A model generated the notes under the pieces. It saw only the letters and a list, made by a program, of their open reading frames with translations, searched no databases and was not told the origin of the DNA. Below are positions 25,441 to 64,000 of a stretch of 64,000 nucleotides of DNA, piece by piece. The first letter of the stretch is position 1; each line of letters opens with the position of its first letter. The position numbers and the translations under genes were made by a program. Origin of the DNA: Antedon mediterranea (lineage: Eukaryota > Animalia > Echinodermata); assembly GCF_964355755.1 (NCBI RefSeq), contig NC_092677.1:23361175-23425174 (forward strand), read 5' to 3'.

Positions 25441-26514
25441 CCTTTAAGAGAAAATTAGTTTACATAACTAACATTATTATAATAAAAATAATATTCACTG
25501 GAAATATTTAATATAATAAAAAATGATTTTAAAATATGTCATTATCATCATAATAAATAATGGGGATCTTGCAAAATCGCCAGGAGATATAACTCAGTCC
25601 CAAAATGTAAGGAATTCATAACTTTTAAAAATAATATCTGTTTATCAACTTCGTCAATATTATATATCTTAACAATAATATATCTTTCTTATACATATCA
25701 CATATTATTTACATAAAAACCCATTAAACAGACATGAACAGATGGAAGATTGGTTTTCGAAAAATTAACAAGTTAAACTTGAAAAAAAATACATTCTACC
25801 TATCAAGAATTGAAAGCAATATTACTATATAGTAGGTTAATATGTACAAATGAAATATATTGTGTCTATTATATAAATAAGTTATTATAGTATATTTATA
25901 TAATTAATTTAATTTTTTAGTGCCAAGATAAAAAATGAATGAATGTGGCTATACTAGTCCATTAGGTGTGAATGTGAGAACACTGGGCATGTGCTAGACT
26001 TGCCCCAAGTCTGTATTAATTTTTTTTATTTTTTTTTTTTATTTTGATTTTTGTCTGAAAATATCCAAGCTCAAGTAGTATACGTATGTAACGCCATATG
26101 TGCCAAAATATTTATCTTTTTACTAATATTAAAACAAAAGCAGACTAGGCATGTGCATGTCTCAAAAATGTTTAATGAACCTCTACTATTTTTTCCTATC
26201 TTAAATATATTTACAATTAATTTTAACCTGATCAAAATATTATTTGTAATTTACATTTAAATTAACTTTATGTTATCTCATCAATCAAAAGTTAAAATAA
26301 TAGTACTTATTGCAAAATTTCAACAAAATAAAATTTTAAAAATAGTAACCTTGTTGATATCTATAATTTATGCTCAATTATTATTTGTTTATTATACAGT
26401 ATCATTATTATGGTCATAACATATATAAATTATGGTTCAATCATTCAACGCTATCCATTTTAATGCTTTCATTATTGGGCCTTTATAAGTATTTTTCCGC
26501 TTTCAATTGCCTAA

Positions 26515-26673
26515 AGCTCTGTCTATACTATCAAACTAGTTTGAAAAAAAGTGTGATGTGCCCAAATATGGCAGTGATATGCTTAAATATGGTAGTGATA
26601 TGACATCATCATGTCCATATATGAGCATATCACATTTTTTTGTCACATGAAGTTTGATAGTGTAGACAGAGCT
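26515..26673. mobile_element. Small Harbinger-like MITE (further copies ~35099-35222, ~35245-35328, ~35731-35900, ~62803-62952)
   Basis: taa|agctctgtctatactatcaaact ... agtttgatagtgtagacagagct|taa. Confidence 0.82.
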
Positions 26674-26969
26674 TAACCTTGGTTCCCACTAGAAAAAAGA
26701 TTTCTGCCGCAATGCAATGTAACCACCCAACATAAGAAATATTCTTCTATCAATTTCAAGTCCCCCTTTTTGAATGATCACCGTACAAAGCAGAAAATGG
26801 CATTGAATATACGTCTTGGCACCATGCTTACGATAGCTGGTTAGCACACGCAAGGTATGTTCTAACTTTGCGTCAATACGTTGCATCTACAACCTTGCAT
26901 TACTTCCTAGTGGGAACTAGGCCACTAGGGTACTAAACCCTTAATACTGCATCAGTTACTAACAGTTGA

Positions 26970-29900
26970 TTACATAACAAGACAAGCTTTGCTACCCTCT
27001 GCCTTTCCTTTTGGTGTATCTCCTCCCCCTGCTCCTGCTGCTGCATTACCATTGCCACTAGCTGCTGCTGCATTGCCATTGCCATTAGCCGCTGCTGCTG
27101 CACTGCTTTCTTGAGCCCCTTTTACGATCTGCAATTTTTCAAAAAATAACTTAGGTAATAATTACAATGCTTTAGTTTGTTATGGAGTAAAGTAATTTGT
27201 AATGTCAAAATAAAAATGGTAATAGTCAGTCAGTCAATGAACTGTGCTCGAGATTTAAAATGTTAAAATTAGATGCCCAACTTAACGGTAGGCCTGTTTA
27301 TGATTAATGATACATGCTGGAAATGATGGAAATAAAATTGATGACGAAAGCGAAAGATAATGTCAGAAATGAATTAATTCAACATTGAAAAGGCAAATTA
27401 TTATTAGAAAATTATAGGAAACAAGGGACAAGGATATAGTTTGTTTAATTTAAATAACATATTATTTCTCACCATTTTGAAGTACAAATAATTTGGAAAA
27501 AGGCATTATCTGCAATTTGGCCCCCCCCCCCACCCAAAATAAAAAAATAATAATTGAAAATTATGTCAGATATTGTTCAATAATGTACTTTTAAAATATG
27601 TTCATTTGAAAATAAAATACTACATGAACTTTTGTAATGAAAAACAAAAACATGTTTTGTTCAATTACTAAAAAGTAGCTTTTTGAAGATAAGCTCTTTT
27701 CTCAAAGTACGGCAATATAGTTAAACAAACCTGCTACATCCACTGGGGTGGCAACAGATTTTATTTTTCAAATGTCTTTGTTATTAACGGTACTATACAG
27801 TGAACAAGGAACTTAGTAAAAAAACCTGTTTTATTCAGGGATGTATTGTGGTTGTGACAATACTCTAATATTAAAGATGTATTGTCCCACTGAAAAAATA
27901 ATTCTTAAACAAATTTTTGTTGAATATTCCAATATTCCACGTAATAGTTATCCACTTTGACCAAAAATTGGATCTAAAAAAAATGTATTTACCTGAAAAA
28001 AATGTAATTTAAAGCCAAAAAATGGTCAAATTGGCTGCCAGCCAATGGATTTTTGGTTGAATTTAACCATTTATTTTGTCATTTTACAAGTGAAAACATT
28101 ATTTTTTTGGCGTTTTTTTTTTCTACGGAAGTGATTAACTTTATATTAGCTACAAAATGTGGTATTCAAAGTCTGATTTAATTAATCTTCATTTTCATGT
28201 TTTTGGGGACAATACATCTTTAATATTCTAATATTAATTGAGGTGGCATCAGATTGTTCAAATTTCTTTGTTAAATCCACCTGATTTAAGGTATGCTTAT
28301 TTTGGTAAAACTAACTAAAATTTTGGATACTATTTGTTGAGTAAATTAATTATGCTTCAATTGAAGAAAAAATTACCAGCATAAAAGCGTATTTTACAAA
28401 AAGCCTATTAAAATTATTTGGACATGTAAACAAGAACAATAGACATGCTAATTAAGCTATTAAAATGGTATTCAGACATTTACTCCTTTATTCATTATAA
28501 AAGCCAAATTATTTACGCCTTTCCAAATTTTTTAAAAACTGAAGTAAATAATCTTTTAAAATAATACAGATTTGAATACCCACTGAATTTAACCTACTGG
28601 GTACACAATGTATTTACTGTAAGGCATTAGTGTTTAATGTATGTATATTTTGATTATTATAATGTGTGGAAAAGATGAATAAAGTATTATTTATTATATT
28701 GTTATTCAGTCTATTGGAAATATCAAATGTTATCATATTAATTTATTTCATGCATAGACAATTATTTTTATAAAATAAATATAATAATAATAATAAATGT
28801 ATTAAAATATTTTTATTTATTATTAATGTAAATACTATAGTACCATATATTCCTGTTTTTGTAAACAAACTATAATATTTCTTTGTCATCTCCATTTGTA
28901 AATTAAAAAGTTGCGTTTTGTTCATTATGATGTATATTTATGTTTGTATTAATTAAATATTAGTACTGTCAGTCAGTCTGTCTGTCTGTCTGTCTATAAA
29001 AAAATTAATTCATGATTAAGTGAATGATTTTGTTAGTGTTGAAAACACATGTACACATAAAACAAAATGTGGAAGTACCTAGAAGACAAGAGTGAGGAGG
29101 CAAGTAGGAGGGTTGGGAGAGAATGGGGGCTGAGGAGGCAAGTAGGAGGGTTGGGAGAGGATGGGGGCTGAGGAGGCAAGTAGGAGGGTTGGGAGAGGAT
29201 GGGGGCTGAGGAGGCAAGTAGGAGGGTTGGGAGAGGATGGGGGCTGAGGAGGCAAGTAGGAGGGTTGGGAGAGGATGGGGGCTGAGGAGGCAAGTAGGAG
29301 AGTTGGGAGAGGATGGGGGCTGAGGAGGCAAGTAGGAGAGTTGGGAGAGGATGGGGGCTGAGGAGGCAAGTAGGAGGGTTGGGAGAGGATGGGGGCTGAG
29401 GAGGCAAGTAGGAGGGTTGGGAGAGGATGGGGGCTGAGTTGTTTGTCTCTACGGTACCACAAATGCTCATTACTAAAAATTGACAAATTTGTCATAATAA
29501 CCAATATTAAATATATCATTAATTTCTCATGCTTTCTTAAACATTAATGTAAAATATGCATAAAATAATTGTTGAACTAAAATACAACTAAACTTCACTA
29601 TAATAAGCAAGCTTGATGTACATTCATCAACTTATGCATAATTCATGAAGGCCATCGCAAACTAAAATTATCATGGTTGTTAGAAAACATAAACATTCCA
29701 AAATAATAGCAATTAGCATTTTAATATTAAAGAAAGCAAGCTGTATTCTAATTACTCCCAACAATTGTTTACATGCGCTTAGCAACAGTAGTTATGGACA
29801 CAATTTAACAGCAACTATAATAAGCATGTGATTGTTAGTTACGCTATGGAAGAATTATAAGTAATTCATCCATAGTTACACGGTGTAACCTCCTCTGTAA

Positions 29901-32900
29901 TAAACCAATACATTGAAATGTAAACGACAATACCCACAAACCAACCAAACATGTACAATGCAATTGAAGTGAAAAATAAATAAAAATTAAGTTGATACAG
30001 TTAATAAAGCAAAGAAAGTTATTTAATTACAAGCAAGTAAGTTATTATTTGATTATAAAATTTGAAATAAAATACGATAAATAGAAACAACAATCTTTGC
30101 TTTACCTCAGTTTGATGATGATTAATTTTGTGAATATGATTTGTATATATCAAATAACAATCAAGTATTATATTGTTTATTTAAATATTATTGGTGCATT
30201 CAATAGTGAAACAATTTTTAAATGTACACATTTGCATATGCAAGTGCCAGCTAATGTAACGTGCATAATTTTTTTTCTCACAAAAAACAATACTGACACC
30301 AATTTAAAAATGGCAATACTGATTATACACAATGCAAGCAAGGGATTTGATTGGACAATATATGCGACAAATAAGGAATTTATATTAAAAATGACAACAT
30401 TTAATAACCAAATAAATAAAAGGAGTTTTGAATATAAATATAATTAGATATGGAATATTTGTTCAAATAATGAAATATATCGATACAGAAATAAAAACAT
30501 TATTCAAAAGAAGAGACGATAAAAAGGAAGACAGGAAGAAAAGAGGAAAATGTTCACGGTGACGGAAAATAATTATGGTAATGCACTTACACCACAAACT
30601 TTAACATTAAGAGGTGCCGGATGAAGGAGGAAGAGGGAGCTGGCTATTTTCATGCTATTTATTTTTTAATACCACATAGGTTGTGTATGCAAACAACAAT
30701 CTGGTGATCTGGTATAATATAGGCCTACTGTTAGTTGATACGTCCTTATCTATTAGTATTAATTTAATGCATAGATCTCTTTGTTTTTTTTTATTTTAAT
30801 TTTTGCACTATTAATTAAAGCTGACACTTACAAAATACAAATTCAGTTTAGAAAACTTCAAGAAGTGTAATAATCAAACAAACTATACATTTCAATAGAG
30901 TTAATATGTTAGACCAAAAGATTAATTATTTTGATTTCAATTTACATGGATGGTAATACACACTGACGATTATGTTTAAGACTTCAATTAGTATTTGAGG
31001 ATATGTATATTAAGGGTGAAGAAAGGAAGAAACATAACACTTATTATTGGACGTACAGTTATATGATTGTACAGGTCGTTGACTTTTGACCTTTAATAGT
31101 TTTGTCAATTTCTTGCATCTGTAAAAAATGTAATTTCTTTCTTTTTATAATTGTTTGGGTTAAAATTATTATAGAAATATATAAATGAATATAGTAAAAA
31201 AGATAAGTCATTTAATCTACAGGCATTAGTGAAATACTAGATTATTTTTTCGTAAGCATAAGATGTGCAAAGTGAAAGTACTTTGAAAACACTTTTTCAA
31301 GTCTGTTGTTTTTTGTTTGAATTCTACTGGAATGAATTAAGGCTGGTTTCCTGTCGACGTAAGAATATCACTTTTGTTGCGACTACGTCGATATGTCGTA
31401 AGAAATGCGGATTTTACAGGAAACCGATTACGATCGAAAATTTATAAAATCGATCTTTATCTTACGCTTGAATGAACGCCCTTGCGTCACGTTTCTTACG
31501 TCTCATACGAAAGTTGACTTGAAGTCAACTTTCGCAAGAGACGTAAGCGCAATCGTAACAAGTAACCAATGAACGACAAGAGTTATGACGTAATGTGTAT
31601 GTCCTTATAGTGAAATAAAGCCGGACAATAACATTTGTATGTATTTACTACTATAATTTTAGCCCACTTTACGATGTTGTACATACTTTACAAATGCACA
31701 GTAGTTTCAATATAGGCCTAATAATTTTCTAATCAGGGAGTTTACAACTCATATCAAAATATAATACTCTTATTTATGGACGTGCAATAAACAATCAGCA
31801 TCGGTAGAAACGTCGCGAAAATGAACATTTTCAACAAGATAAGATATAGAAAGCCCCTTTGTAAGCAATATAATATTATTATGTAACTTTAAAAAAAAAT
31901 TGTTTGCTTGATTTTGTATAATTTATATTGTTTTGTTAAATTTATTCTTATTATAGGCCTGTAAATAATGGGTATCTTACTGCGGTAGTACTATCTCATG
32001 CTCGATTAGATATGCTTATAGGCCCATAGGCCAATGCCTAGTCTAGGGCCTAGGTAGGTCTAATAATAATAATAGGAATCTCTAAATGATTTGCCTTTTT
32101 TTAATTTTGAAAATTATTTAAGGCTAGGCCTAGAGGGCCAGGATAATTAATTCATATTTAGATTCATACAAATAATACATAGGCCTACTAGCCTAGGCTA
32201 GGGGCCTAGGCTAGTTTGATTGTTTGGTCAAATCAATTCCTATTAGTACAGTATTAATTATTATTAGTATTTTACTAATACTAGGGCCTAGCCTATCTAC
32301 TGAAAATAACATGTTGGTGTGCTGCACTGACACTGCTGCTGAGTAGCTACAGGTACAATAAGAACATTCAACATTTCGCGCGAAAAATGATAAAACCCGC
32401 TCTAAAAAGAAACACCAATCAGAAATGTTGTTTCAAATACGTCATAAATCCGACCGACGTAAGAAAAAAATTTCAACTTTCGTAACAACACTAAAATCGA
32501 CGTAAGCATACGACGTGTGTTTCACAGCCAAAATTTCAACTTTCGGGAGCAGCATAACTACAGATGTTTCTCTGCGGCCTGACACGATCTTGACTAAGGT
32601 CAACGACGTCAAGTTTTTCTCAACTTTCGTAAGAGACGTAAGAAGCGTATGAAACGCAAGAATCGTTGCAAAATTCGACTTTTTACGTCGACAGGAAACC
32701 AGCCTTTATATACACATAATCAAGTGGTTTTTTTTTATGTGACTATGAGCAGTGCGTGATATTGTCATGTGCAACGTTCACCAACTGTAATTGTTTAATA
32801 ATGCCCCACATGCGTGAATGAATTACCGTATCAGCTTCACATTGCTCTAAAGACTACATGCAAAAGGTGACAGAATAAAATAAAAGTATATTCAGTTTTG

Positions 32901-35900
32901 GCGGACAGACATTTGACAAGACAACAATATATAGCGGGGAGAAACATTTTTTTTTTCTTTCCTGTCTCAATGTAAATGTCTTACATTTGTCATGAGAACA
33001 TTTTCATTAGTGTCAGCAATAGCAATTCCATTTGTTTTGGATTCTGTCCCCTTAGGAACCACAGTTTTTAAAGGTTCTTTTTCTAATTTCGGTACAGTTT
33101 CCTGGACGCCATTTTGTAATGTAGGTGTTTCTTGCTGATTTGCGGCAGGTTCCTCGTGGTCTATTTCAAAGCTGTACACACTGACAGTCTCTTCCTGGGA
33201 AATAGTTTGTAATAGAGATAATAGAGACATAAAGCATAGAGAAGTATACATAAACAGAAATAACAAGATAAATTGATAAACTGTAGAATAACTGTACACA
33301 TTAGAAAATATGTACAGATGGAGAAAGATACAAACATTTATAGAAACAAATTCTGTATACAAAAAATAAGCAAATAAGTTCGTCATAATATAGACTTTGC
33401 AAATTTCAGCAAAAAAATGTGTTAACTCGCCTTCAGAAAAATTTGCATAGTGCATTTAAATTTTTTTAAACTGCAGCAATAATTTCAAATTTAAAAATCC
33501 ATTTCTTGCATTGTGTGTAACCATGATAATGGCAATAATTGCTTGGAATACACATATGATTCAGTAATCTTACATTTTTACCACCGCCATTTTTCAAAGA
33601 CTTTACTAGCCTTTGACCTTGGAGCACCTAGTTAGGAAAGAGTTCATTAGATATATAAATAAAACAGAACGAAAAAGACATGTAACTAATATACTTCAGA
33701 TATGAAGGAAAATGCATTATAATAGTACTTAATTCTATTTCAGAAATAAAAATGCTAATATGGTAGAAAGAATCAAATGAAAAACAGTGGTGAATCAGGG
33801 GCTGCTTGGCTAACACCACCTAGAAGTAAAATAAAATAATTAAAACCAAGGGTTAATTGTTCAAGGGGTTGTTATTTGGATAATACAAATTTATTATACA
33901 GTATTAAATCCAATTGTTGTTTATATTTGTTTGTGTGTATGTATTTAATTGTTCTACCATTTGGCTTCTCTTGCTTAGGAGACAAAATGCTTAGATTTAA
34001 ACAAAGGTGGCGTTTAACGGGACAATGCGTAACACAGTCACAATGGTTCTGCATAGCATAGCTAACAACAGATATAAGTCATAATTTGATTGTGCGATAA
34101 AATGCCTCTTTTTTCAACTGCCTGATAGCGAGTTGTTAATGATGACTTAGAATGAACTGTAACAGTGTAGATTTTAGGAAAGATGATGAAATGTACAGTA
34201 GCAATACGTGAAAGGAATGTAGAGATAATAATTATAACAAGGAAAAGTATCATATTATTATGTTTATAATTGTCAAATTAATGAAACCCAATTAAATTAA
34301 GTTTTATGGAAATTGTTCTTTTTCTTCTGCATCCGTTTCTCCTTGGAATGCGTTGCTTATTTGCATACGTCAGGCACCTTCCATCAGTGTCTTTAAATCT
34401 CTCCTCAAAACACACCTCAAATTTTTCTGTCTATGTAAAACGCATTGAGGCAGTCAGCATAATGCGCTATATCAAGTACCAGTTATTATTATTATTATTA
34501 AATCCTCAAAGGTTAAATACTGTAATGAGGATTTGGCATAAATAAATGGAAAATTTTTAATGTAAGGCTAAAGTGATATATACCAAAGATTACTGAGCTA
34601 TTGAAAAATTTAAAAAAAAAAAAATTTTTCCAAAAAATAACATAAATCAAACTTAGTACTGTAATATTATTTTGATGAAAAATATATACTTATTTTATAT
34701 GTAGCAGAATAGTTTTACCAAATGTAAATCACGTTTGCAACAGAAAAATATGTTTACTGCTTTCTCACAATCAGAGCAAACTTGTGTTATGGACTGCACA
34801 TCAATCAGTACAACACATAATTGCATATAGATATTAGTAACAATTTGTTTAGTTGCATTAAAATATATTTTGTTCATTATAACTGTAATAATTGAAGAAA
34901 AAACAATCCTGTTTTTAGCTTTGAAAACCATTTCATTTCAAATAAAGTCTGTCAGCATTTTACAACAAATACACATATCTATTTTATCTGTTTAAAAGTT
35001 TTTGAAGAAAATGAATATTAAAAATGTTTTCTGAAAAATAATCAAAACCAAACAAACATTTCTTCTACTGTCTTATAATTTGTTTTTTGTTTCTATTAAG
35101 CTCTGTCTATCATCTAACTTTATGTTATGTTATGTTGGTGGTCTGCCAATATATGGACATGATGATTTCATATCACTCCCATATTTGGGCATATCAAACT
35201 AATTGATAGTGTAGACAGAGCTTAAAGTCTTATAATTGTTTTTGGCTCTGTTTACACAATCTAACTTTATGTGACAACAAAATGTCACACTTCTTTTATC
35301 AAACTAGTTTGATAGTGTAAACAGAGCTTTACAGATATATATGTCTTTGGATTAGAAATCAATGGTAAGTACACAAAATGAATATAACGACTTTGACTTT
35401 AATACGTACCTTATTCACGATTTGAATGCGTGACTTCAGCCTGGAACCAGAACTGAAAGCTACTGCATGTACTTTGCGATAAAATGGTAAGAATTGTTGA
35501 TCTTCAACTGGTTTCTTCTCCCATTCTTCGCAAATATCCTACAAGAAAATGTAATAAAAGTTTCATAGAGAGCAGACATGAATCTAGTGGGCAAAGTATA
35601 GTTTATCCTCAAATCAGCCAATTTGATATGTGTGTTTAAAGCACAACTCTCTGCTCAGACATGCACAACTATGCATCTAGCAAATCTGATCATAATACTG
35701 CTTAATGTACACTTAAACAAAACTGATTAAAGTTCTGTCTAAACTTTATGTGACATAAAAATGTGATGTGCCCATATGTGGACATGATGTCATATCACTA
35801 CCATATTTAAGCATATCACTACCATATTTAAGCATATCACTACCATATTTGGGCACGTCACATTTTTTGTGACATAATGTTTGATAGTGTAGACAGAGCT

Positions 35901-38900
35901 TAAAGAAAAAAGATATATTTCATGTTCTTAATAAAAACAGAAATGGCGGCTATATTTAGTTAGCTATTTTCTAATCTAATCCTAGTGAGCACTCTATGAA
36001 TAAGATTTGACCTTCTTTATTCAGTATACAAGGTCGTAAAGTATAGTATCCAGTTTCCTGAATCCTAGCTTAAAGAAAACCCAGGCTGCCAAAGATCGCC
36101 AACCAATAATGAAAATGATCATGACCATGTCTTAGTCCCCAAGTATTAAGCTCAACATACAAAAACATGTACCCACTTCATATGATAAACGATATGTACA
36201 TTATGGATGACACAACTAATAAAGTGCCCTAGCCAAGACATCTTGCACCTTGTAATGTTTTGCTCCCCCCACCCACACTTCAAATTCATGGGCCTAGCTA
36301 TGCCATAGCCTGGATTCATAGCTTACCTGCATGCGCCGTTCTTTCTTACGCAGTCTATCGTACTGCTTCTGCAAAAGGACAAGCTCACTCTTTAAATGAG
36401 TTGTTTCATCCTCACCGTTCGGACCAAAGGAGACAGACATCTTTTTGTTGAGGATTGGTTTTGCTGACGCCTCTTGCATATTTTCCAATTGTCTAAGCTC
36501 CTAATTTCAAACAATACAATATTTCTATGAGTTTAATATCAATAATGTTATTATGTGCTTGTATGTGTAATATCCCTTAGCTAAATCTCCTCTACAATAT
36601 AATACAGATTTCACTTTCTAACATACTGTGGCACGGTCTATTGGTTCTATTACATCCCACAATGCCTCATAAATTTTGGAATGAACAGAAGATTCCAACC
36701 CAATACCCGCCACTATGTCTTACCTTAGTTGTTAAATTTTTCCTTTTAGTATCAACTGCTGTATTTTCTTGATGACCATACAGTGAGTAGGTAATGCTGC
36801 CAGTTTCAAAGTAATCTAATACTTCTTGCGTTACTACAGGAATGGAGACAATACGGCTATGATTCCACTCGGGTGATAATGTGCCAGTTAGCATTGGCGT
36901 CTCTGTGTACTCAGTTTCCTCGTAAAACCTGTATTTAACCATCAAACCTTTAGAATAACGTGCTTTGTGTACATCACCATTTATAACCCCAATCTGAGCA
37001 AAAAAAGGAATGTTATTAGAGAGAAAATCAGTAGAAACTGTACTTTATATCTATCTCATGTCTATAAGATTTAGTAAAGAACACTGGTGAAATCATTGGG
37101 AGTTAAACCTGTATGATATATCCAATATGATTCTGTATCAGTGATGTTACAGACAAATAACATTATAAGATCCGTGATGAACCACTAGACATGGTAACAC
37201 TAAAGATCAGTGATGCACACCTAGACATGGTAATACTAAAGGTCAGTGATGAACTGCTAGACATGGTAACACTAAAGGTCAGTGATGAACTGCTAGACAT
37301 GGTAACACTAAACGTCAGTGATGAACCACTAGACATGGTAACACTAAAGGTCAGTGATGAACTACTAAACATTGTAACACTAAAGGTCAGTGATGAACTG
37401 CTAGACATGGTAACACTAAAGGTCAGTGATGAACTGCTAGACATGGTAACACTAAAGGTCAGTGATGAACTGCTAGACATGGTAACACTAAAGGTCAGTG
37501 ATGAAGTGCTAGACATGGTAACACTAAAGGTCAGTGATGAACTGCTAGACATGGTAACACTAAAGGTCAGTAATGAACTGCTGGGTATGGTAACACTAAA
37601 GGTCAGTGATGAACTGCTAGACATGGTAACACTAAAGGTCAGCCATGCTAACGTACCTTGATGTGATATGGTTTTCCAAGTAGTTCACTTGGATCATCAA
37701 CATATTCTTCATCTGTGTATGGTTTACCATCTTGTGTACAAGGTTTGATAGTGATGTACAGCTTGCCCTCATCTGTACCCTAGAAATTAATGGAGAAACA
37801 GGTTAAAGGTTACTGAAACTTACATTGATATAATATAATGGTTCTCAAAACTGTGTGACCATGTAAAAGTCAACAGAAACATATCAGCCAACTTCGGTCT
37901 TTTTTTGTACAATTTAGGAGGACGTATTTGAGAAGTTAATGAAAAGTAAATATAACAAAGTGTAATATGTCCTGAATGATGAAAGATAGTTGCTTTTGTT
38001 TTGTCTGCAAATATTTAACATAACTGTGACTGTATAAATAGTATCCACATCGCCTATTCAAGTTTGGATGTTTCAAGTAGTTTGCCATACATCATCAGCA
38101 ATAATTCTTAAACAAAAAGTAAATCCTGAACCATTGGAATCTACATTATACTGCTAAACATTAACCTTATATGCCTACATTGAGCAGTTTTATATTCACA
38201 AATGCAAATATTTTAATATTTTTGTGTTGTATTTTTTATAAGAAATGTATCTTTTAAGATACAACACAAAAACAGACAGGATATGTAAGTAGTGACTACA
38301 ACACAACTTACTTTGAAATCAGTAACAGTTATGTTATCATCAAAATCTAAGGAATAACCCAAGCTCTGAAGAAAAGCATGTGCTGTGCCAATAAGAACAT
38401 CTTCAGGTGGCTCCCAAAATGGGTCATCATTGTCTTTCACATCGCTAACATCTTCACCATCAATAAACCTTTGGTATAACTCCTACAAATAAAAAAAACA
38501 AACAAAAAACAACTTAATTTTACAGCAAATATAAAAGTGACTTAAGGAAAGTTCTGCTTACTGCTTTCATAATAAATACCGGTAGTTAATCCCAATTTTC
38601 AACAAATTTATTTTAAATCTTCTGGTCATTCACTCTAGTATAGTTAGTTTAGCATAGCGACAGTAAAATGTTGTAAAAGTAACTTTGGAGAGCACTATGT
38701 GATGATCTTTACTTCATGACTTGATAAGTTTAACCAACCCATGTGAGTGGCCTAGTGGTTAAGATAGTGGAATCGTAATATGTAGCGACAATATCGCTCC
38801 ATGGTTGTATAAAGGCAATTTTTTACATCAATAACACTTACTTGAATCAAGTAATGCCTGTTAATAAACTTGCCTCTACCCCACACCCAAGTATTTTAAA

Positions 38901-41900
38901 GCTTCAAATACATTCTTTACTTCCATAATACTTACTTGAATCAAGTAACGCCTGTTTATAAACTTGCCTCTACCCCACACCCAAGTATTTTAAAGCTTCA
39001 AATACATTCTTTACTTCCATAATACTTACTTGAATCAAGTAACGCCTGTTTATAAACTTGCCTCTACCCCACACCCAAGTATTTTAAAGCTTCAAATACA
39101 TTCTTTACTTCCATAATACTTACTTGAATCAAGTAACGCCTGTTTATAAACTTGCCTCTACCCCACACCCAAGTATTTTAAAGCTTCAAATACATTCTTT
39201 ACTTCCATAATACTTACTTGAATCAAGTAACGCCTGTTTATAAACTTGCCTCTACCCCACACCCAAGTATTTTCATTCAACAGATTTTTCATTTTTACCA
39301 TAACCCTAAATAAATAAAATGATAAAAAAAAAAACAGATAAAAATAAAAATAGCAAAACTACTTTTATCATTTTTAGTTAATTAAGACAGTAACACTCAC
39401 ACTTTGACTAGGATGCAACGCAAGGAAGTACGCGGTGCAACGTAAGTGAGTTGACCAATCACAAGCGACCATTCGGACGATCTACAGTAACATGTCGTGA
39501 TTGGTCAAATGACTTTTTTTGCTTATACACTTGGACACAAAAAACCAGGTGGTAGGATAGGACTTAAAGCTCACATTTTAAATTTTATATCTGGTTAATT
39601 CTATATAAATCAAATATTTGTAACAGAAATTAAGATGAAAAAACATGAATTTCCCTAAAAATGGTCAAATAGAAAATTTGGCAAAATTCTATAAAAACCA
39701 GCAAGACTTGTTTTCAGTAGTAGTAATAAAATGTCTGGTGACTCCCTAGAAGGTGAAAAAAGATAGTGGCTTTATGGTGGATAATTTTTGCTATAGCATA
39801 AAAATAAACCACTGAAGTTGAAAAAAAATACCAGAAACGTAAAAATCAAGTTATATTACCTATATTTAGTCATCTGATAACATATTTTACCACACCGTTT
39901 ATTTTTCATAGTTTTTAAAAATGTATCTCTATTTACAATTGTAATTTGAAGTATCACTCCACTGATAAGAAAGTGCTTATTTTCAACAAGCTTGTGTATC
40001 ATAAATAAAATCCCAAAAATTATGAAACATAGAGGACACTATAGATCGATAATTATTGGAATGTATGATCAATATGATCCTTAATGCTGCACCTGGTATT
40101 TAAGATTTGTCACTTACTCAGTCTCTTTGTCTTTGCCTTCTTGAGCAGCACCACTAATAAGCACAATCTCAAAGCTTCTATGTTTGTTCAATTCTTCACT
40201 AACCGCATTCACTTCATTTACCATTGGCAACAGCTCAAGGATCTGGTCTTGTACACGTTGTTGTTCTTTAAATTTATTCAATAAAATCAATTCATTATAT
40301 TTATTCATTTATTTATTCAATTCATATACATTATTTAGGACCACAATGGAAATAAGTTTGCCGTCTCAGTACTTTTTTGTGTATTTATCCTATTGATTTT
40401 TATATCAGAATAAAGAAATAAAATATATATTACTGATATGAAAATTATAACCTTAATTTTTTCTAAAATGTTGATAAGAAACATCACTTTGTGCTACCCG
40501 GGACAATAATTACCTAGATAAAAATTACTGTTTGCGATCATGAACGCTAGTAAACCAAACCCAGTACCGCTTTGATTCGAGAAATTACTTCAAGACATGA
40601 CAAAGCGTGGAGAACAATAAATGTGATTTTTTTCTACTGCTATGTAGGCACCTTAACTTTTAAACCATCATTCTCATATTGGTACATGACAATAACTAAT
40701 ATTAAAGTAAATGCAATGTTAATCTTGGTCATAAAACAATTTTTTGTAATAATTAATCAGACTTATATAGCGCCAGTATCCATAATGTTATGTTCAGAGG
40801 CGTTTGCAAAAGTTAAACAGGAAACGCTTCTGTGTACAAGTGAGTTTTAAAATTTGAAGATATTGACATTTTCTGATGTCTTTATGTCTATAGGTAATAT
40901 CCATAAAATGGGTTCTTCACACGAAAATGCACGATGGCCATACGACTTATAATAATAAAATACATACCTTTGCTGAGGCCACTACCAGCAGTTTGGTAAC
41001 CTTTAGCGTGGGCAATCTCTTTCTGTGCAAATTCCCAATCAATTGTTGCTGGTGTTCCCTCTGGAACATCAGCCTTTGCTGGGTTATGATAAACATACAT
41101 ATGATTTGAACCTAATGTCAACAAAAACAAATAAAAGAAAAAAAAAACAATTAAGATTTACATTAATTTCTTATTCTCAAACCTCACAATTTCAGATATA
41201 AGATTTGTTTGAATCTTAAATGTGTAAAAGAAATCACAATAAAATGAAGAATATTACAAAAATCTATTATAAATAGTCAGACCTGATGTTACAATATCTA
41301 GAGACTCCCCCAGAAAAATTGTTTTTAAAAAGTTAAATATTTTTTTCTCCTCTAAATTTGAATTAGATAAATGTATTATTTTGTTAGGAATGGAAGGACA
41401 CTAAAGATCTGTCTGTGTAAGATCAACGATTATTTATCGCGTCGAAGAAGAAGAGAATTTTGAGAAAACAGGAAGGGCAATGATAAGAAAGAAAGAAAGA
41501 AAGAAGAGGAAAGAAAAGGAGGAACACAAAGGAGCTCTAGGTCTGAGTGAAAGAATCATGGAAGTCATTATGTGGAGTAGCTTGAGATGGATATGACATA
41601 TTCTAAGAAAAGATGAAGATGAACCAGTAAAGAGAGCTTGCCATTTGGAAGTTAGAGGATGGCCAAAGGTGATGTGGAAAGATATGGTAAAGAAAGAATA
41701 AAGGAGAGTTGGTTTGAAGGAACATGATGCGCCAGACAGAAAAAAGTGGAGAGATGGTGTAGGAACTTGGTGACAGTGACAGCCAGTAACTTCTTGGAAG
41801 AGGGAGATGATGATGTTGCATAAGAAGAATGTAACAAATGTGTTATTTACCAAATAGAATTCTATCTAAATTTTCCAAAACCTTGCTGTTGACCAATGGT

Positions 41901-44900
41901 ATACCATTCACTTTGATCTTAGCTCCTGGACTTCCAGGCTTGATTTCAACTTCACCATCACTGTTTGAAACTATTGCATGTTTCTTCTGGATGCTAAAAC
42001 AAGGAAACAGACATATGCCATTTTTAAACTTAAAATGTATGAAAATGATTCCCTGAGGTTGAAAAAGCTCCCAAATTCTTAACCAGTAAAATCAATTCAC
42101 ATGCACTTTAACGAACCCAGTTCATCAATTAAGATGAGTATGAGTAGGTGGGGGGGGGGGGGGTGTCGTGTTTACCCCAGTCAGCTGGTTCACAAAATAG
42201 CCCCTGTGTCACGGATATCTGATAGGGCAGTGATTATTTTTACTATTGGTAAACCTTGGCCTAAAGACATAAAATAAAATGAAAATAAACACATTCGGTA
42301 TACTAGACTTTTCAGAAAACCTGAAATCCCAGCCCAAGGGTGTTCGGTATTGGGAAAGTTGACTGGACTCCCAAATACCTTATTAAATCAACAAACAAGA
42401 GTCAAATACAGTATTTTGAATATATTTTTTATTTCTTGCTACCTAAATATACCACATTTGTTATAAACATTTTTTTTAAGATTAAAAAAGTTGTAGTTCC
42501 AAAAAAAAATATTTAAAATACATTACCTCAAACCATTAAGTGTAATAGTTGGTTGAGGGTCAGCATCTTTACGTCCGAACGTTGTTTCACTAGAGCCAAG
42601 GAAATGACAAACAACTCCTGACAATTGTGGATCTTCATTTAGGTTCAATAAATGTGGTTCTTTCTTCTTTCTACTTGCGGTCAAATCTCTTTCATTATTT
42701 TCACTTACATCCTCAGCCCTTTGTTGTTCAAGCTTTTACAAAATAAATAATATATCTTTCATGTTTATATAATAACAATCTCCGTTAACAGTAAGTCTGT
42801 TCAGGCTACAATCGACTTTCTTACTTCTTATTACAAACCTTACTCAATGATGTCATTGCTACATTTTTACATTTCTGTTTAAACTGAAGGTTTTGTGAAT
42901 AGAAAACTTAGTAGCAAAGGTATTTTAAGTTAACAATTTATAATAGCACCCTTTGCAAAAAAACAACCTATGTTTCATATAAGTTTCGTATATCGCGTCG
43001 TTTCATATAAAAACGTATACGAAAGACAGGAAGTAAAACAGGAAGTTAATTGCAGTATACGGCCGTATACGATCAGTATACGCTCGTATATGACCCACAT
43101 ACGGCTCGTATATGACCCGTATACGGCCGTATATTACTCGTATACGGCTCCTATATGATCCGTATACGACTCGTGTACGAGACGTATACGACTACTTGAC
43201 CACAAAACCTCCATTAACTGTCTAATCTAAACAAATTCCCGAATTAATTACAATTGTATGAAACGGAGTATTATCACTTGTTGCAATTAAGACCGAAACA
43301 ACAACGACAATACGCCGATCGGCTGCTTACGCAAAGCAAGGATTTCCCTTTTTAAAGTTCTTTAGAAACACCACGAGTCGTCGCTCAAGCGGGAAGAGTA
43401 GGCCTAGTCTAGCCTACTACATGAACACTGTAGGCTTACTAATGCATTGACGTCAAACAAAAAATTACGTAAGGGCAAAATTCGCTAAATCGTTTTATAA
43501 ACGTTTTACTCAAAAGGTACATAAAGCAGGGAGTTGTAAAATTATTTATTATTATTTTACAACTCCCTGCATAAAGTTACTTTCAGTAGTGATTTTAACC
43601 ACCTAATTTATATATTAATTAAATTCATTTGTTATACAGAACCTGTATTAAGGGTACACATTCGGAATCCAAACAAATTGAGTAAATTTCCCTAGTAAAT
43701 TAATATAATTAGGCCTATTTGGTATTTTTTGTTTGTATAGAGGTTTCCCAGAAGGAGGGGTTATACTGTAATTAGTTATTTAGGTTAAATAATTTGCTCC
43801 GAACATTTTAAAACATACACAGTACGGTACTGGATTCTGTTCTTAAGAACATTTACAAAGAACGATTGAGCGTCGAAACTATAAATAGACGATGGAGAAT
43901 AATTATACGATACGATGAATCAATACATGAACCAACTGAACTTCTAAATATAGTGTTCGGTTAATCGTACAAAAGGATGCCGACCTCTAACCCGGCCCTC
44001 CGTGTTGTTATCTCGGCGCGTTTGAAGCTGATCGACTCGAATTTTTTTTAACCTAACAATAATTGTAACAAGTTTGTACAGTAATGGTTCATAAACACAA
44101 CATCGATCAAAACAGTACTGGTTTATACTATGGTTTAAACATAATAATAACCGAATTTACACAATGTATTACATTTTGAATGTAGTCCTACAGTGTTAGG
44201 TTAAATTCTCTTTGTGGCTAATATAGGCCTACATTCAAACATTATTTGTTTGTTTCTTTAATTTAAATAACTGCATTTCCGCCTTGTATAGGCCCACACA
44301 TTAAATAGGGTGGGTTTAGTATTTTTTTTATTAATTTGTTTGTTAATTAGCATAACATAATGTATCATAAATTATCGTATGACGAATGTTGTTTAGATTT
44401 TTTATTTTTTCCTGAAAATAAATATAAATACATAGAATTGACCAGGCTTTTAGGCTTTCTGGTAAGGTAGAATGCAGAACAATTTCAATAATTTCAGCAG
44501 AAAAGAGGAAACACCGTAAACTTTGTAATTCTGTGCCGCGCTTGCAGACAGCACGGCATTTTAACAAAAACCTATTTAATTGAAGCAAAACAAAACAATG
44601 TACAGTACGTTGTTATTGTATGTCTTGTATTGTATATTGTATTGATCTTTAACAGCTTGGACGTGTTTGTCCACAAAAAACGTTTTCACTTTGTGTATCC
44701 GGTGATGATTTGACCACCAGAGAAACGTTCAAAGGAAAACAACACCTCACGCGGAAAGCACATCGGGGTGATAGGATTTCCCCATTTAGGCCTACACCAC
44801 TCGATCAAAACCGCAACACCGGCGTTCAACGCCCGTCTTTATTCAACAACTGTGCGTGGTTACACACCGTTGCGGTGATGTAAAAACTTCCAGGGTAGGC

Positions 44901-45565
44901 TTACTTCGGCCCTGTCCCCCAACCCTTCGGGGCGTTGAAGCAGCGCGAGTTAATCGAGTGACACAGTAGGCCTGTGATTTTTACCTAATAAAACCATATC
45001 AATTTTACTTTGAGTATGCCCTTCGTCTTAATATGGCCTTTTGCAATGCTATTCAAAAACCCTGAATACAGTTTAATGCAATCTCATCAATTACGTTAGT
45101 TAAAAGCAAGGAAAAGAGGCTACTAAAGTATCATCAGTACAACTTTTATAATAGGCCTATACATGATGTTATATTCTCCAAACATCATCACGCGATTTAA
45201 TATAGCCTTCTAATAATATATAATACAAAATAATAATGTGTTTTACGGTAGGTATTGTTAGGGTTTATTTAATTGATTTATCCAAAGGAAATTTACTGAC
45301 AAAAATGACAATACGAGTATCAGTGGATTAGTGATTGGTTTTGTAGATTAAGAGTAATCATGTATTTAAATTACATGTTGTACTTGTTATATTTGGAGAA
45401 GGAGAAGGAGGGGAATGAATGAGTTTTATTACATGTTACCGTATGTGTAGATTAAGTATGTTTTTGTCTATCTTGTGCTTTCATTTATTACCGTATATAT
45501 TTTTGTTGGACGCACCTTCAAAATGTGAAGTGTGCCACTGTTACAAAAGTAAAGTTCCGAAATAA

Positions 45566-45625
<60 letters not shown>

Positions 45626-48600
45626 TAACCATCCCGCAACTGACTTTAGTTACTGGAGAGTAAAGAATGGTTATAATCCAACTAATTACCTATTTTCCCC
45701 AAAAATGTCAAAGATCATCATTGTAATCTAATTTCATCTAAAGTAGTGAATACTTTGGTATTCATAACATTTAGAACAAAGTATTCTTCTCGAAATCATT
45801 TCCGAAATTAATAGATTATTAGAGTTTATTTCGGAATACCTTTGAAGATCAACATTGGCGGTTAGAGTCTAAGAACGCGTTGAAGCAAATCTAACTGTCA
45901 GTTGTTTATATGCCCAAGCAAAATCAGAAAGGGCTTTTGATGTGCATTATATAAACACGGCATTGCTCTCATTCACTCATTGCATTATTTATTACAAATC
46001 ACAAACAACCTTTGCCTGAACAAAAATGAGCACTCGTGAAAATAGTCAGGAGAATGGGCCGTGGATTGATGTTATGAAAGCGAAATATGGGAATCAACCC
46101 TTATACGCAGGGTCACAGATTTCCACGGTAGACAGCCTGAGTTTGCTGATGGCATATTGCCTTGAGCACAACGCAACAGAACGTAATATATCTAATATTT
46201 TAGATATAATACAACTTCATTTGCCAAAGGAATCAACAATTCCAAAACATCTAAGGTCGTACTACTACCTAAAACAAGATTACGACATAGGGAAAAAAGA
46301 AACAATTAACAAACATCCCATATGTAGTCATTGCGGCTATCTGTCGGAAGATGGGATGGATGCAACAAGTTGTTCTATGTGCAAGAGGTTGGGTACATTT
46401 ACCAACGAATCTTATTTTATCACATTGGACATCAAAAGCCAACTAGAAGAATTATTTAAAGGTAAGTTTGAATTTCTTTCGTCTTGCCTTTATACTCGTT
46501 AATATTTACTACACGTGTATAATATACAGTATTAGGGCAATTTAAGGAGTATGAATTGTAAATAAAACTGAAATTGTAAACCGCAAATTCTTGATGAGCG
46601 AGGATGAACTAATAATATGTATTTTTGTACTATACTTAGGCCTACAAAACTCCGAACGTTCACTTTCTAAAAATTTATTTTGATCATGTCACTTATTGCC
46701 AATTGTTTGCACGCACCCTTTGTGAAATTGAATAGTTATATAGTAGGATTGCCATATAATGTGGGGCTTTTGGTTAATATTTGTCTTCTTTTTACCCAGA
46801 TCCTGCCGTGGTAAAGGGATTGTCTGTCAATAAAACATCGGAAGATGGGGTAATTCGGGACATTTATGATGGAGAAATATATAAACGCCGAAATACTTCA
46901 ACGGACACATTGTTGCTAACATTAACTTGGCATTTTGACGGTGTGAGTGTATCCAAAAGTTCGAAGCAGTCGATTTGGCCTCTTCATGCGGTCATAAATG
47001 AACTGCCACCAAAAAGAAGGTAGATTTTTGTGGGCTTTTTTATTCACTCACTCTCCCCTTTACCGCTGGACCACTGTTCCTCATGTAACCGCATTTTAAA
47101 ACTTAGATTAACTATTTTGATGTTTAATGTTACAGGTTCAATAAGAATCGTATTCTTATGTTTGGCCTATGGTCTGGAGACAGTAAGCCTCAAATGCCAT
47201 CGTTCATGATACCATTGACGCCCATTATTAACGATCTGTATAACAATGGTAAGAAATATAATTTGTTGTAATGTTTACGTTTCTTTCTCTTAATTTACGA
47301 GTTTGCGCCAGTGTTGGTCAAACATTGTATTTGTAACGTGTTGTTCCAATAATCAAAATATTAGAAAGCAGAAAAGGTGTTCGTTTACCACGGACTAACA
47401 CTTTATAGGCCTACTGTATTAATTAGGTTAGTGGCCGGAACTAAACACCGTAGCGTAGGGATGATTTCCGGACACCATGTTATTTATTTAAGCCTATTAA
47501 ATTCCTAGAAATGCATATCGGTCCGTGGAGATCGGTCCATGAACTATTTTCCACTATTATATGTTCGCGCAACTCAAAAGCGTCAGCTTATACGCATGCG
47601 TATTCATTTTCCAATTTCCAAATCCCACTCTTAGGAGGCATGCGTCGTGTAAGCTGAGCTGAGGTGGTGAGGTGATGATTCGCGCAGCGCAAACAAATTC
47701 GCCTTTCCGATTTTTCGGAACATGAATACGCAATACTGTAGTATAAAACCTTGCGCCTACATTGCTGGTTTGCTTATCGTTTCCAGCAAATTTTGTCAAA
47801 TCGTATAACATATGACCGGAGTGGGGGTTTGGGGTGTAGACTTCCTCCAAGTGTTAGAACGAAGACGACTAACAGATAACATTAATAATAATAGTTAGGC
47901 TAGACTAGAGGCCCTCCATCGGCCCTACTTTGTCTCTACGTTCTGAACTAGGCCTACACTCTTTTTGGCCCTAGACTAGTCACTAGTGGTGGTGTATGTA
48001 AGCTAGTGTTTTAGTGCGACTAGGCCTATGTTAGACAAGTAACTAACTAAAGTAATAATTAATATAGTATAACCTAGCTAGGCCTAGGCCTAGATATAGA
48101 GACAGCATAAAACAAAGAAGGTGGTATAAAATTACAAATATCTATGATTATTTAGTATAGTAGCATGTATTTTGAAGTTGATTCTTTTTAGTGGTTTAAC
48201 ACAGTGTAAACTATAGGTAGGGATACCGAGAGCTGACTCCATTTTCATTACCACGATTAAACAGCGCGCACGTTACTATGCGCGCAATGTCATTGACGCG
48301 GTGTTTTTTTACTTTGGTAAACACTTTTTATTAGGTAATTGTTCTGAAAATAAATAAATTATAAATATATCCTTTTGAGTATATATTTATTTACCTATTA
48401 TTCTATAAGATCAAGTATTTTTTATTTCCATTTCATTCAACCAAAAATGTGAATATAGTGGTTAAAAGATCGTTATCGCCTAGCGCGTATAGCTTTTGTT
48501 TACTACGAAACCCTCGGAAGGCTCAATGACCTACCATTTCAACCTTATTTTTGTAGTTGAGCCTCTTATGACCTCAAAATGTTTTTTATTCCTACACCAA

Positions 48601-51600
48601 GATAATATAGTTCCACATACCATGTGCTTGTTACTAAGAAAAATATTAATTTTAACTGCTAAAAAAACAATTTTATCCCGATATGAGGCCTTTATGATTC
48701 GAATATTTCATAGTAACAACCCATATACCATAAAAAATATCCGTTTAGTCCATTTTTTAAATAATTTTTGAAAAATTCCGAGGGGCTCAACTACAAAAAC
48801 GCCATTTTATGGTATGATGTCATCGCAAGCCAATCAAACCTCCGCTCCGCAAGTCCCACGGTTGAACGATTTTGGATTCTCGCCCTTTGATTGGTTGACG
48901 CCATTCAACACACAGCGGAATAATTTTCTCGCGAGTGCCGTGAAGTCACATGGTGTCAGGCCTGTCCAATTACACAGGAAAATAATGCATTGAAATTCTT
49001 CGAACGAGGTTAAATAAACACTCTTTTTTATACAATAAATAAGTAATATCATATTTTATTGAATTTTACAATGTTGATATATAAAATATGTTACTTAAAA
49101 TCGTGATTTTATATAATTATTTTTACGAAAAATGACTAGTTCATACAATTGTCGACTGAGGGCGCAATTTGTTTATATCGTTCGTGGCTAAAAACGATCA
49201 TTTTCGGCGATGTTTTAAACCCTATATTTCGAAAAGTACAAGTCATATTTTCATAATTCTTTCTTTATTATAATATTGATACAAAATACTAACAGGCAAT
49301 GTATAATTTGTTTGAAAAATATTAACTTTTAATTTTACATCGTTATCCCTACTATAGGCCTAGGTTATGTAAATTTATGACATTTTATGACATGACAACT
49401 TTTAAATTAACAATTTATTAAACAATTGTTAACATTTTAAACATTTTTTTCAAACTTCACAATTTGCTTGATGAGTTTGCCAGTTAAATTTAAAACATTA
49501 TAATTTATCGTAACATTTAAAATACACTGTAATTGACCGCTTCATTGGTTCCTTTATTACTCAAAATAAACCATTGAATTGTGGTTTGAGAGTGATTACA
49601 ACAGCTAAAATTGTTTATTTGCCTTTTTAATTATGTCTGCTGCCTTTGTCTTGATTTTCTTTGTAACACTTTGTATGGCTAATTGTTTATATCTCATTTA
49701 TATACTGTACTTATGCATAGTACTGTAGTTATAATTGTTGTCTGCCTTTGGAATTATTGTTCATTCCTAATGATGCTCAAAAAATAAAGATCAAAATGTT
49801 GAATCATGGCTTCCCCGTATTATTTAATATTTTTATTAATCAGTTTTAGATATTAACATGATTTCCCACATGATCAATAATATAGCTTAATTATCTCAAT
49901 AGTAATAGTTTATGATTAATTTTTGTATTATTCTCCTTTGTTTTAAAATATTTCAAATGAGTGACTGACACATACATGTACCTATAGACTCCCATTAGTC
50001 ATAAGTTTAACCAAAATGATAAAAGTTTAGTAATGCTGCCATCAGATTCTTAAAAACGTCATCTTGAATCTACTGTTTTATTTTGTGTTTTATGTTATAG
50101 ATATTTTATATTGTCAATTGTTTATTTTAAATAGGAATAAGCATCGGTGGACGTGAAGTTAAGGTTTTATTCCATGTAGGGACCATGGATTTGTTGGCCA
50201 TGTGTTTGACCAAAAACATGCAACAGTTTAATGGCAAACATGGCTGTGGAATGTGTGAAGTGTCTTCTGTCCGCGTACCTAAAGGAAAGGGAAGCGTATC
50301 TGTATATCCATGGATTCCTGCCAAACCCAAACTGCGTACTGCCAATGACATGATGGAGCAGGCAAAAGAAGCCATGCAAACTAAAGACTGTGTAAGTAGA
50401 CCAATAGTTTTTTTATAGAAAAGTAGTTTAGGTAGGGTTTGTTTTTTGGCAGTTATTTAAACAATTAAATTTACCTTTATTTTTATTTTATTTCCTAGGT
50501 CAAAGGAATAAAGGGATATACTATGCTATCCAAGATAACATATATCGACCCAGCTACAGACATTGTAGTCGATTACCTTCATGGTGTTTGTTCTGGCTTG
50601 ATGAAGAGCATGCTAAAAGTGTTGTTATTTGATCGCAGCAAACCGTGCTACATTGGTGATCAGATGACCGAGCTGGATGCGCGTTTGTGTGCAATCAAAC
50701 CTACTGACTGTATTACTAGAACACCAAGGTCGATTGGAGAAAATTTTGCAGATATCAAAGGTTAGGCCGAACTATTGACTTTATTTTATTATACATATTG
50801 CAGTTTTTAATCTTGTGTAAACTAAAAAAAAAAAAACTCTTCTATTTTTTCAAGGGATAAGCTAAAGCTGTTCCTGTGTTGGGTTTAAGGAACACGAAAA
50901 TAAGAAAGTATATATTATGTGTACTGTATTGTTTTTTATTAATTTTGATGTATAACGATATTAATTGATTATATTTTCAGCGGCTGAATTTCGTGCCTTC
51001 CTCATATATTATGGATGTGCCGTTTTTAAGGGTATCTTGCCAGAAGAGTATTATGTCCATTTTTGTTTGCTTTCATCTTCAATTTATATTTTAATGCAAG
51101 AAGAAATTACCCAAAATGAATTGGCAGTGGCAGAGACCAACTTACAAAAGTTTTATTACTTGTTCACTGACCTGTACGGTAAGTATTTTTAAGAGAATTG
51201 AAGAAACTATCTAGTGTTATTAAAACAAACAAAAAACAGTCCTATTTAGTAATGTTTAACAACTTTTCACATCATTGTATGGTTTTAAATTTAATAAAAA
51301 CAATATTTCTCACATCAATACTGATGTTAGAAACATGTAGTAATAGATCAATATGCCTCTTTTGTTTTTGCAGGTAAAGAAAATTGTACCATAAATTTGC
51401 ACAACACCTGTATGCATCTTGTGGATTGCGTAAGAAATGCAGGCCCTTTGTGGGCATTTGGGTGTTTTGCATTTGAAAGCAATTGCGGACAGATGGCCAA
51501 ATTTGTACGTGGCACTCGACATTGTGGGATGCAGGTAAAGCAATTGTTTCAGATTTATTTTTTTAAAATGTATATATAATATAACTTGCACTGATGAAGG

Positions 51601-63840: not shown

Positions 63841-64000
63841 TTGCTTGTATTGTAGATATAGAATTATGATTTTTTCAGTATATGACATTGATGAATGGAT
63901 GTTCATTGAATTGTAAGCAAATTCATGGAAAAATTTCATTTGAAAATTTTGTTTAGCAAAATTGCTAATCAAACTGATTTTTTAGTCAAGAAACATAGTT

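Follow-up and report, generated by a model that had tools for sequence, protein, structure and literature searches.

A 64,000-nucleotide stretch of the crinoid Antedon mediterranea (assembly GCF_964355755.1, contig NC_092677.1, forward-strand positions 23,361,175 to 23,425,174), which we call the window, bears on the question of how motors of the kinesin-3 subfamily KIF28/KLP-6 hold their cargo. The window contains the tail-coding two thirds of the KIF28 gene on its minus strand, with an annotated last exon encoding the terminus CLVM and a conserved, unannotated last exon encoding the terminus CTII. Both termini have the form of a CaaX box, i.e. Cys, two further residues (a1 and a2) and a final residue X. 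From these motifs we consider it likely that both tails are prenylated and that they hold the motor on membranes or on a carrier that binds prenyl groups. A conserved CaaX box would be a simple and testable answer to the cargo question for most animals.

A KIF28 gene and its annotated CaaX end

With one tail exon as query a single protein was matched, namely 'kinesin-like protein KIF28 [Antedon mediterranea]' (P0001, 1035 aa). Using tblastn and junction-by-junction refinement, 14 GT-AG exons were located on the minus strand between 63352 and 26970, the spliced translation of which is identical to residues 328–1035 of P0001. Residues 1–327 of the motor lie beyond the window end (base 64000), and the window holds the motor domain from residue 328 on only. 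P0001 possesses the Pfam domains Kinesin, Microtub_bd, Kinesin_assoc, FHA and KIF1B: the kinesin motor (PF00225, E = 1.9e-104) is followed by FHA (PF00498, E = 6.4e-6), and the KIF1B-type (MBS) domain was found with E = 5.2e-9 (PF12423). Residues 3–864 align with residues 2–853 of the full-length Caenorhabditis elegans KLP-6 structure (7wrg_A) in a single alignment (E = 2.6e-221) spanning the motor, neck, CC1-FHA-CC2, MBS and MATH-like domains. In best-match listings, as distinct from a tree, the nearest named relatives are mostly KIF28, KIF28P, KLP6 or 'Kinesin-like protein 6'; the remaining rows are products labelled hypothetical or unnamed, entries without any name and a few with composite kinesin names. 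An earlier reading made from the letters of the window (the sequence-only reading) had proposed a KIF28-type motor, and this is borne out by the protein name, the Pfam domains and the alignment to 7wrg_A. A 928 aa protein (P0125) considered as C. elegans KLP-6 was rejected, being a Toxoplasma kinesin.

The annotated protein terminates in the distal last exon (27128–26970, minus strand). Behind the acceptor aaaattgcAG this exon opens with ATCGTAAAA, of which the first codon is ATC, and after 52 codons and a stop it closes with TGTCTTGTTATGTAA, giving the protein end ...GSKACLVM. P0001 reads ...RIQIVNK, then the residues of an 18-codon exon, then IVKGAQ...GSKACLVM, so that the distal exon is included and the proximal one left out. 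The phase-0 exon, its acceptor and its peptide are seen in the sequence as the sequence-only reading had described them. A 27-bp unit, repeated 2.4 times at 27035–27098 within the exon, encodes the low-complexity run NGNGNAAAA(S/G), so that the linker before the CaaX box is longer than in other echinoderms.

Conserved CaaX ends in KIF28 orthologues had been named beforehand as a check on the prediction, and were found. The tail (residues 700–1035) as query gave 33 orthologue representatives, of which 32 end in CxxX. Addition of the 120 representatives listed for residues 440–760 gave 123 distinct KIF28 cluster representatives, and Cys occupies position -4 in 118 of these, a count which overstates independence since single oyster or mussel species account for many of the rows, with several isoforms each. 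Within the 118, a2 is solely L, I, V or M, and X is Q (77 cases), M (39), T (1) or I (1). The family consensus at the C-terminus, G-S-K/R/S-A-C-a-a-M/Q, is near-universal in KIF28 orthologues, and the 123 representatives come from echinoderms, hemichordates, amphioxus, a tunicate, molluscs, annelids, nemerteans, a brachiopod, cnidarians and Trichoplax. In a HMMER search of 1.84 billion representatives, 45 of 149 further best matches end in C-x-x-x. CaaX ends occur in Limulus (CILL), a millipede (CQIL) and Biomphalaria (CVVL) and, further out, in two choanoflagellates (CSVM, CAVM), Hemimastix (CLIL) and Cyanophora (CVIQ). Several invertebrates contain a second KIF28-like paralogue (P0103, P0108, P0122), of which the Diadema copy ends in CSIM.

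According to the available part of a 2026 review (PMC13524398), boxes with X = M, S, A or Q are directed to farnesyltransferase (FTase) and those with X = L or I to geranylgeranyltransferase I (GGTase-I); the rule used in the sequence-only reading (M for farnesyl, I or L for GGTase-I) agrees with this. Since X in the family is nearly always M or Q, the KIF28 box is of the farnesylation type. Not every relative carries it. The five exceptions among the 123 are P0020, P0294, P0320, P0342 and P0356, the last being named partial, and the box is also missing from the KIF28 of rays (one cluster with four species) and from paralogues in two other genera, a second one in Haliotis and one in Owenia. 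These cases speak against a general anchor and suggest that it is dispensable in some lineages. If the loss in rays, the one vertebrate cluster covered here, is general, it could explain why work on vertebrate KIF28 has missed the box. The same absences, together with the fact that no KIF28 lipidation data were found in the literature, would also suit a terminal Cys motif that is not a prenylation site, but for example a protein-contact peptide or the site of another Cys modification. We regard this as very improbable. In 118 of the 123 representatives the Cys keeps exactly the same distance from the C-terminus; a2 never departs from L, I, V or M, and 116 of the 118 have M or Q as X, in line with the quoted FTase rule. 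This geometry is retained by two unrelated exon sequences.

A second last exon in a modular 3' region

The second of these sequences lies in a 3' region of the gene that is modular, comprising the 18-codon exon, a 70-codon cassette and two last exons, all in phase 0. Every boundary is in phase 0 from the last constitutive tail exon (35538–35410, which ends in ...RIQIVNK) to the last exons, and three upstream donors are possible, all in this phase: 35410 (gtacgt), 33574 (gtaaga) and 32985 (gtaaga). The two last exons, 3.9 kb apart, each have an AG acceptor and their own stop, and AATAAA/ATTAAA hexamers start 258 nt (proximal) and 505 nt (distal) past the stops. The 18-codon exon (33627–33574) is part of the NCBI model and matches an exon that is optional in other ambulacrarians (MIQGHKQLKEMQNGNPN, VLLGHRLAKERQTNGNAD). 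The cassette (33194–32985, tcccAG/GAAGAG...ACAAAT/GTaaga) is unannotated, and P0001 has no counterpart of it. Sea-star and sea-cucumber isoforms carry a homologous optional module, the SVYSFEL cassette, whose sequences in Acanthaster (EDTVSVFSFELED) and Apostichopus (EEDSVSVYSFELDEE) match the start of the Antedon exon. In the isoforms of relatives the optional modules are combined in all ways with either last exon. A minisatellite (38 bp × 9.1, 99 % matches) occupies 29093–29438, between the two last exons.

The proximal last exon (31118–31059, minus strand) follows the acceptor ttttttacAG and begins with ATGCAAGAA, the first codon being ATG; it contains 19 codons and a stop and ends with TGTACAATCATATAA, the box being CTII. 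Here too the phase, acceptor and peptide described in the sequence-only reading are present in the DNA. A CxxX-stop after an AG, taken alone, is not above chance in the last intron (6445 nt), the minus strand of which contains 13 C-x-x-x-stop frames, seven of them with an in-frame AG. The proximal exon is raised above chance by its homology to the short last exons of other Ambulacraria. In seven other species (sea stars, sea urchins, a sea cucumber and Ptychodera) short-exon isoforms are annotated beside long-end isoforms. These short exons are those of Asterias (MRQIQEKTTGKKSQVCSLM, box CSLM), Acanthaster (MMEIHEKATGKKSQVCSVM, CSVM), Patiria (MRQIHEKATGQKSQVCSVM, CSVM), Strongylocentrotus purpuratus (MNRVHEAATGKKPQSGVCAVM, CAVM), Lytechinus (MNQVHEAATGKKPQSGVCVCM, CVCM), Apostichopus (MNQGHRMVKGHSSSRMCVVM, CVVM) and Ptychodera (...KSTTCTIL, 19 residues). 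By our own count from the alignment, the Antedon frame and the Ptychodera exon are identical at 12 of 19 residues. A hidden Markov model of the seven species' short exons was compared with all 4670 six-frame open reading frames (ORFs) of at least 8 aa in the whole window, and matched only the minus-strand ORF at 31211–31062 (residues 32–49, E = 2.5e-5, 22.3 bits), the next-best ORF having E = 0.52. This unique match led us to reject the CTII frame as a chance ORF.

The claim of two alternative terminal exons in the sequence-only reading stands in so far as a homologous pair is annotated as alternatives in the seven ambulacrarians; in Antedon itself only the distal exon is annotated. The sea-urchin short-end form P0043 (955 aa) is encoded in one frame of a single 3592-nt Logan contig and is thus free of introns. 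One shared end each was seen in the Branchiostoma members listed (15 of 39), in all eight full-length Pomacea members and in all listed Mytilus and Crassostrea representatives, and these listed representatives and cluster members hint weakly that the short exon is absent outside the Ambulacraria.

Transcript evidence was sought in the assembled contigs of four read runs, compared over window positions 26500–43000. None of the runs is recorded as RNA. Run X1 is guessed to be RNA; X2–X4, from one sample of one study, look like DNA. A 1004-nt contig of X1 has its sole placement on the stretch at 36723–36993, which is exon 36993–36724, and this fits a spliced cDNA contig. Another piece of X1, placed by the coordinates of four variant rows, covers 32985–33196, that is, the cassette plus two bases; these bases (AG) are also the last two of exon 35538–35410, and the piece gives a weak hint of a 35410-to-33194 junction in Antedon. 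Contigs of X1 cover 31036 and 27099–27425, but depth cannot rank the parts of the gene. Interspersed repeats lie at about 26500–26680, 27600–28200, 31340–32700 and 35200–35880; in all four runs the contig depth there exceeds that of the adjoining sequence by factors of hundreds to thousands. Related 21-bp tandem units occur in the repeats at 26553–26602 and 35791–35850.

Perhaps, then, Antedon uses only the distal exon and makes a single CaaX end, the proximal frame being a relic or a chance ORF. The 90 % cluster of Antedon KIF28 has one member, with the distal exon only, and among the joints listed for 26500–43000 (a further 554 exist, and the tables are filled with repeats) none enters 31118 or 27128; both observations count against the use of two ends, as does the frequency of CxxX-stop frames behind AG in the last intron. 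Distal-only use is nevertheless improbable in our judgement. It is difficult to square with a seven-species profile that singles out this ORF in 64 kb, with a frame, acceptor, Cys and stop that have all stayed intact despite the separation of the crinoid and hemichordate lineages, and with the presence of both ends in every other ambulacrarian that has isoform models. From this conservation we infer that the proximal exon is also used in Antedon, and the paired last exons point to three coding features that are missing from the annotated model of the Antedon gene.

Predicted lipids, mechanism and history

Which lipids the two tails would carry can be predicted from their boxes. CLVM (a2 = V, X = M) and CTII (a2 = I, X = I) both conform to the a2/X rule, and by that rule CLVM would be a substrate of FTase and CTII, with X in the L/I class, a substrate of GGTase-I. 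With Thr at a1 and Ile at X, CTII is a less typical box than CLVM, which tells somewhat against its prenylation; a1 is the least constrained position of a CaaX box. The splice-selected lipid suggested in the sequence-only reading is predicted for Antedon (X = M in the long tail and I in the short, CLVM/CTII) and for Ptychodera (M and L, CIVM/CTIL), and for these two only. Sea stars and sea urchins have X = M in both tails, and Apostichopus has Q in the long and M in the short one. As judged from X, a lipid switch is not the conserved function, both tails being of predicted farnesyl type in the asteroids, the echinoids and the holothurian, and this part of the proposal is weakened to that extent.

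The short ends of Antedon and of Ptychodera, the hemichordate outgroup, both read T-C-T-I-(L/I), and crinoids are the sister group of all other living echinoderms. By parsimony the simplest account is then a single change on the stem leading to the remaining echinoderms, which makes a lipid switch plausible as the ancestral state. A wider history can be put forward only tentatively, and we rate it as possible but doubtful: KIF28 motors may have been prenylated ancestrally, before the animals arose, with loss of the box in vertebrates, and a second exon with X = L or I, acquired in the ambulacrarian ancestor, may have given a choice between farnesyl and geranylgeranyl that was kept by Antedon and Ptychodera.

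Both tails are low-complexity and mildly basic, follow the MATH-like domain and a coiled coil, and carry Cys-a-a-X at the very end. In the mechanism that we propose, Antedon would behave like its relatives and join either of the two last exons to one of the donors 35410, 33574 and 32985. The CaaX Cys would be prenylated, with subsequent -aaX cleavage and methylation, as predicted from the motif alone, and the lipid, by itself or with the basic residues, would fasten the motor to a membrane cargo or a prenyl-binding carrier. The choice between two linkers would be made by splicing, and the same motor might thereby be targeted to different membranes or carriers, in the manner of CDC42 or KRAS4A/4B.

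Membrane insertion need not be the outcome. The prenylated ends might instead be a handle for a prenyl-binding protein, either a carrier of the PDE6-delta type that serves entry into cilia or a partner, as for CENP-E at kinetochores, and the tails would then choose between partners. The two tails differ chiefly in the 15–45 residues before the Cys and share a farnesyl-type X (M or Q) in most classes, so that context rather than lipid type would matter. KLP-6 works as a ciliary motor in C. elegans, and PDE6-delta is used by ciliary proteins that are farnesylated. However, the moderately basic stretches ahead of the Cys suit direct membrane binding as well, and a role purely as such a handle seems to us rather unlikely.

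Remaining features of the window and known systems compared

The other exons of the gene, all on the minus strand, were placed by exon mapping. The first in the window (63352–63129) encodes the end of the motor domain, from residue 328 on, and the second (62748–62654) the neck and CC1; for both the spliced coding sequence equals P0001. An intron of about 20 kb follows. FHA begins in exon 42732–42527, as Pfam also indicates, and continues in 41993–41851. After exon 41111–40968 come those encoding CC2 (40265–40118) and the start of the MBS or KIF1B-type domain (39305–39218), then exons 38482–38312 and 37779–37657, and finally those of the MATH-like tail domain (36993–36724, also represented in the contig of run X1) and the tail coiled coil (36500–36327).

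Several repeats accompany these exons. A tandemly repeated 94-bp unit (× 4.9, 98 % matches) at 38818–39273 copies the 3' end of exon 39305–39218 together with its GT donor, giving four extra copies in the next intron, and tblastn pieces of these copies were obtained at 39177, 39083, 38989 and 38895. A minisatellite (36 bp × 13.4, 92 % matches) at 37158–37642 is intronic. The large intron (42733–62653) contains, on the plus strand at about 46020–53668, a chain of ORFs of 75–160 aa that look like fragments of one decayed mobile-element gene. One of them (46778–47020) has a weak Pfam match to DUF1258 (E = 0.0054, under the cut-off), and Pfam searches of the cassette exon and eight large ORFs in introns and flanks gave nothing beyond this.

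A literature search on KIF28, KIF28P, KLP6 and kinesin-3 with CaaX, farnesyl or prenyl, outside which lay subscription journals and supplements, turned up no description of a CaaX or prenyl anchor for KIF28, KIF28P or KLP6 kinesins; this agrees with the statement in the sequence-only reading that none was known for the subfamily. Papers that contain the name KIF28 were listed as well, and in these it stands in no title or abstract. Where KIF28 and CaaX occur together in the literature the CaaX passage concerns INF2, and where KLP6 is paired with farnesyl the available text covers CENP-E and fission-yeast Klp6 (PMC8950801). Nor was a report found of two splice-chosen CaaX forms of KIF28, predicted here to be lipid-anchored.

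Other kinesin-3 tails reach membranes by lipid contact, through the PH domain of KIF1A/UNC-104 and the PX domain of KIF16B. These are folded lipid-binding domains, whereas KIF28 has no such Pfam domain; if our preferred reading of two prenylated, tethering tails is true, a covalent lipid would stand in place of the PH or PX domain. C. elegans KLP-6 and rat KLP6 (KIF28P), also kinesin-3 motors, belong to the same subfamily as Antedon KIF28 and are collinear with it in their domains. The available text of the KLP-6 structure paper does not mention 'lipid' and proposes cargo binding via MBS/MATH, and a review passage on rat KLP6 concerns mitochondria, calls the role of KLP6 there unsettled and mentions no lipid anchor.

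Prenylated kinesins are known from other families. In the portion of PMC3206815 available, KinesinCaaX of Trypanosoma brucei ends in CVIM and was shown to be farnesylated; its orthologues are restricted to kinetoplastids, it is not a KIF28-type kinesin-3, and splice-selected ends are not described. The sequence-only reading had cited CENP-E (kinesin-7) as a farnesylated kinesin, and what is available of PMC8950801 supports a farnesylated C-terminal tail, like that predicted for KIF28. CENP-E differs from KIF28 in belonging to another family, in being a kinetochore motor and in having one C-terminus, without alternative CaaX exons.

The closest parallels for the paired ends come from the small GTPases. 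In KRAS4A/4B, alternative last exons give different lipidated C-termini. In CDC42 the alternative last exons (CAAX and CCAX) give one protein two lipidated C-termini and two localisations, according to the available text of 10.1101/366369 and PMC10883850. CDC42 and KRAS are not motors, and the second end of CDC42 adds palmitate, while the KIF28 pair consists of two plain CaaX boxes that differ in their linker and, in two lineages, in X. If the prediction is true, KIF28 would join this short list as a motor with a splice-chosen membrane address.

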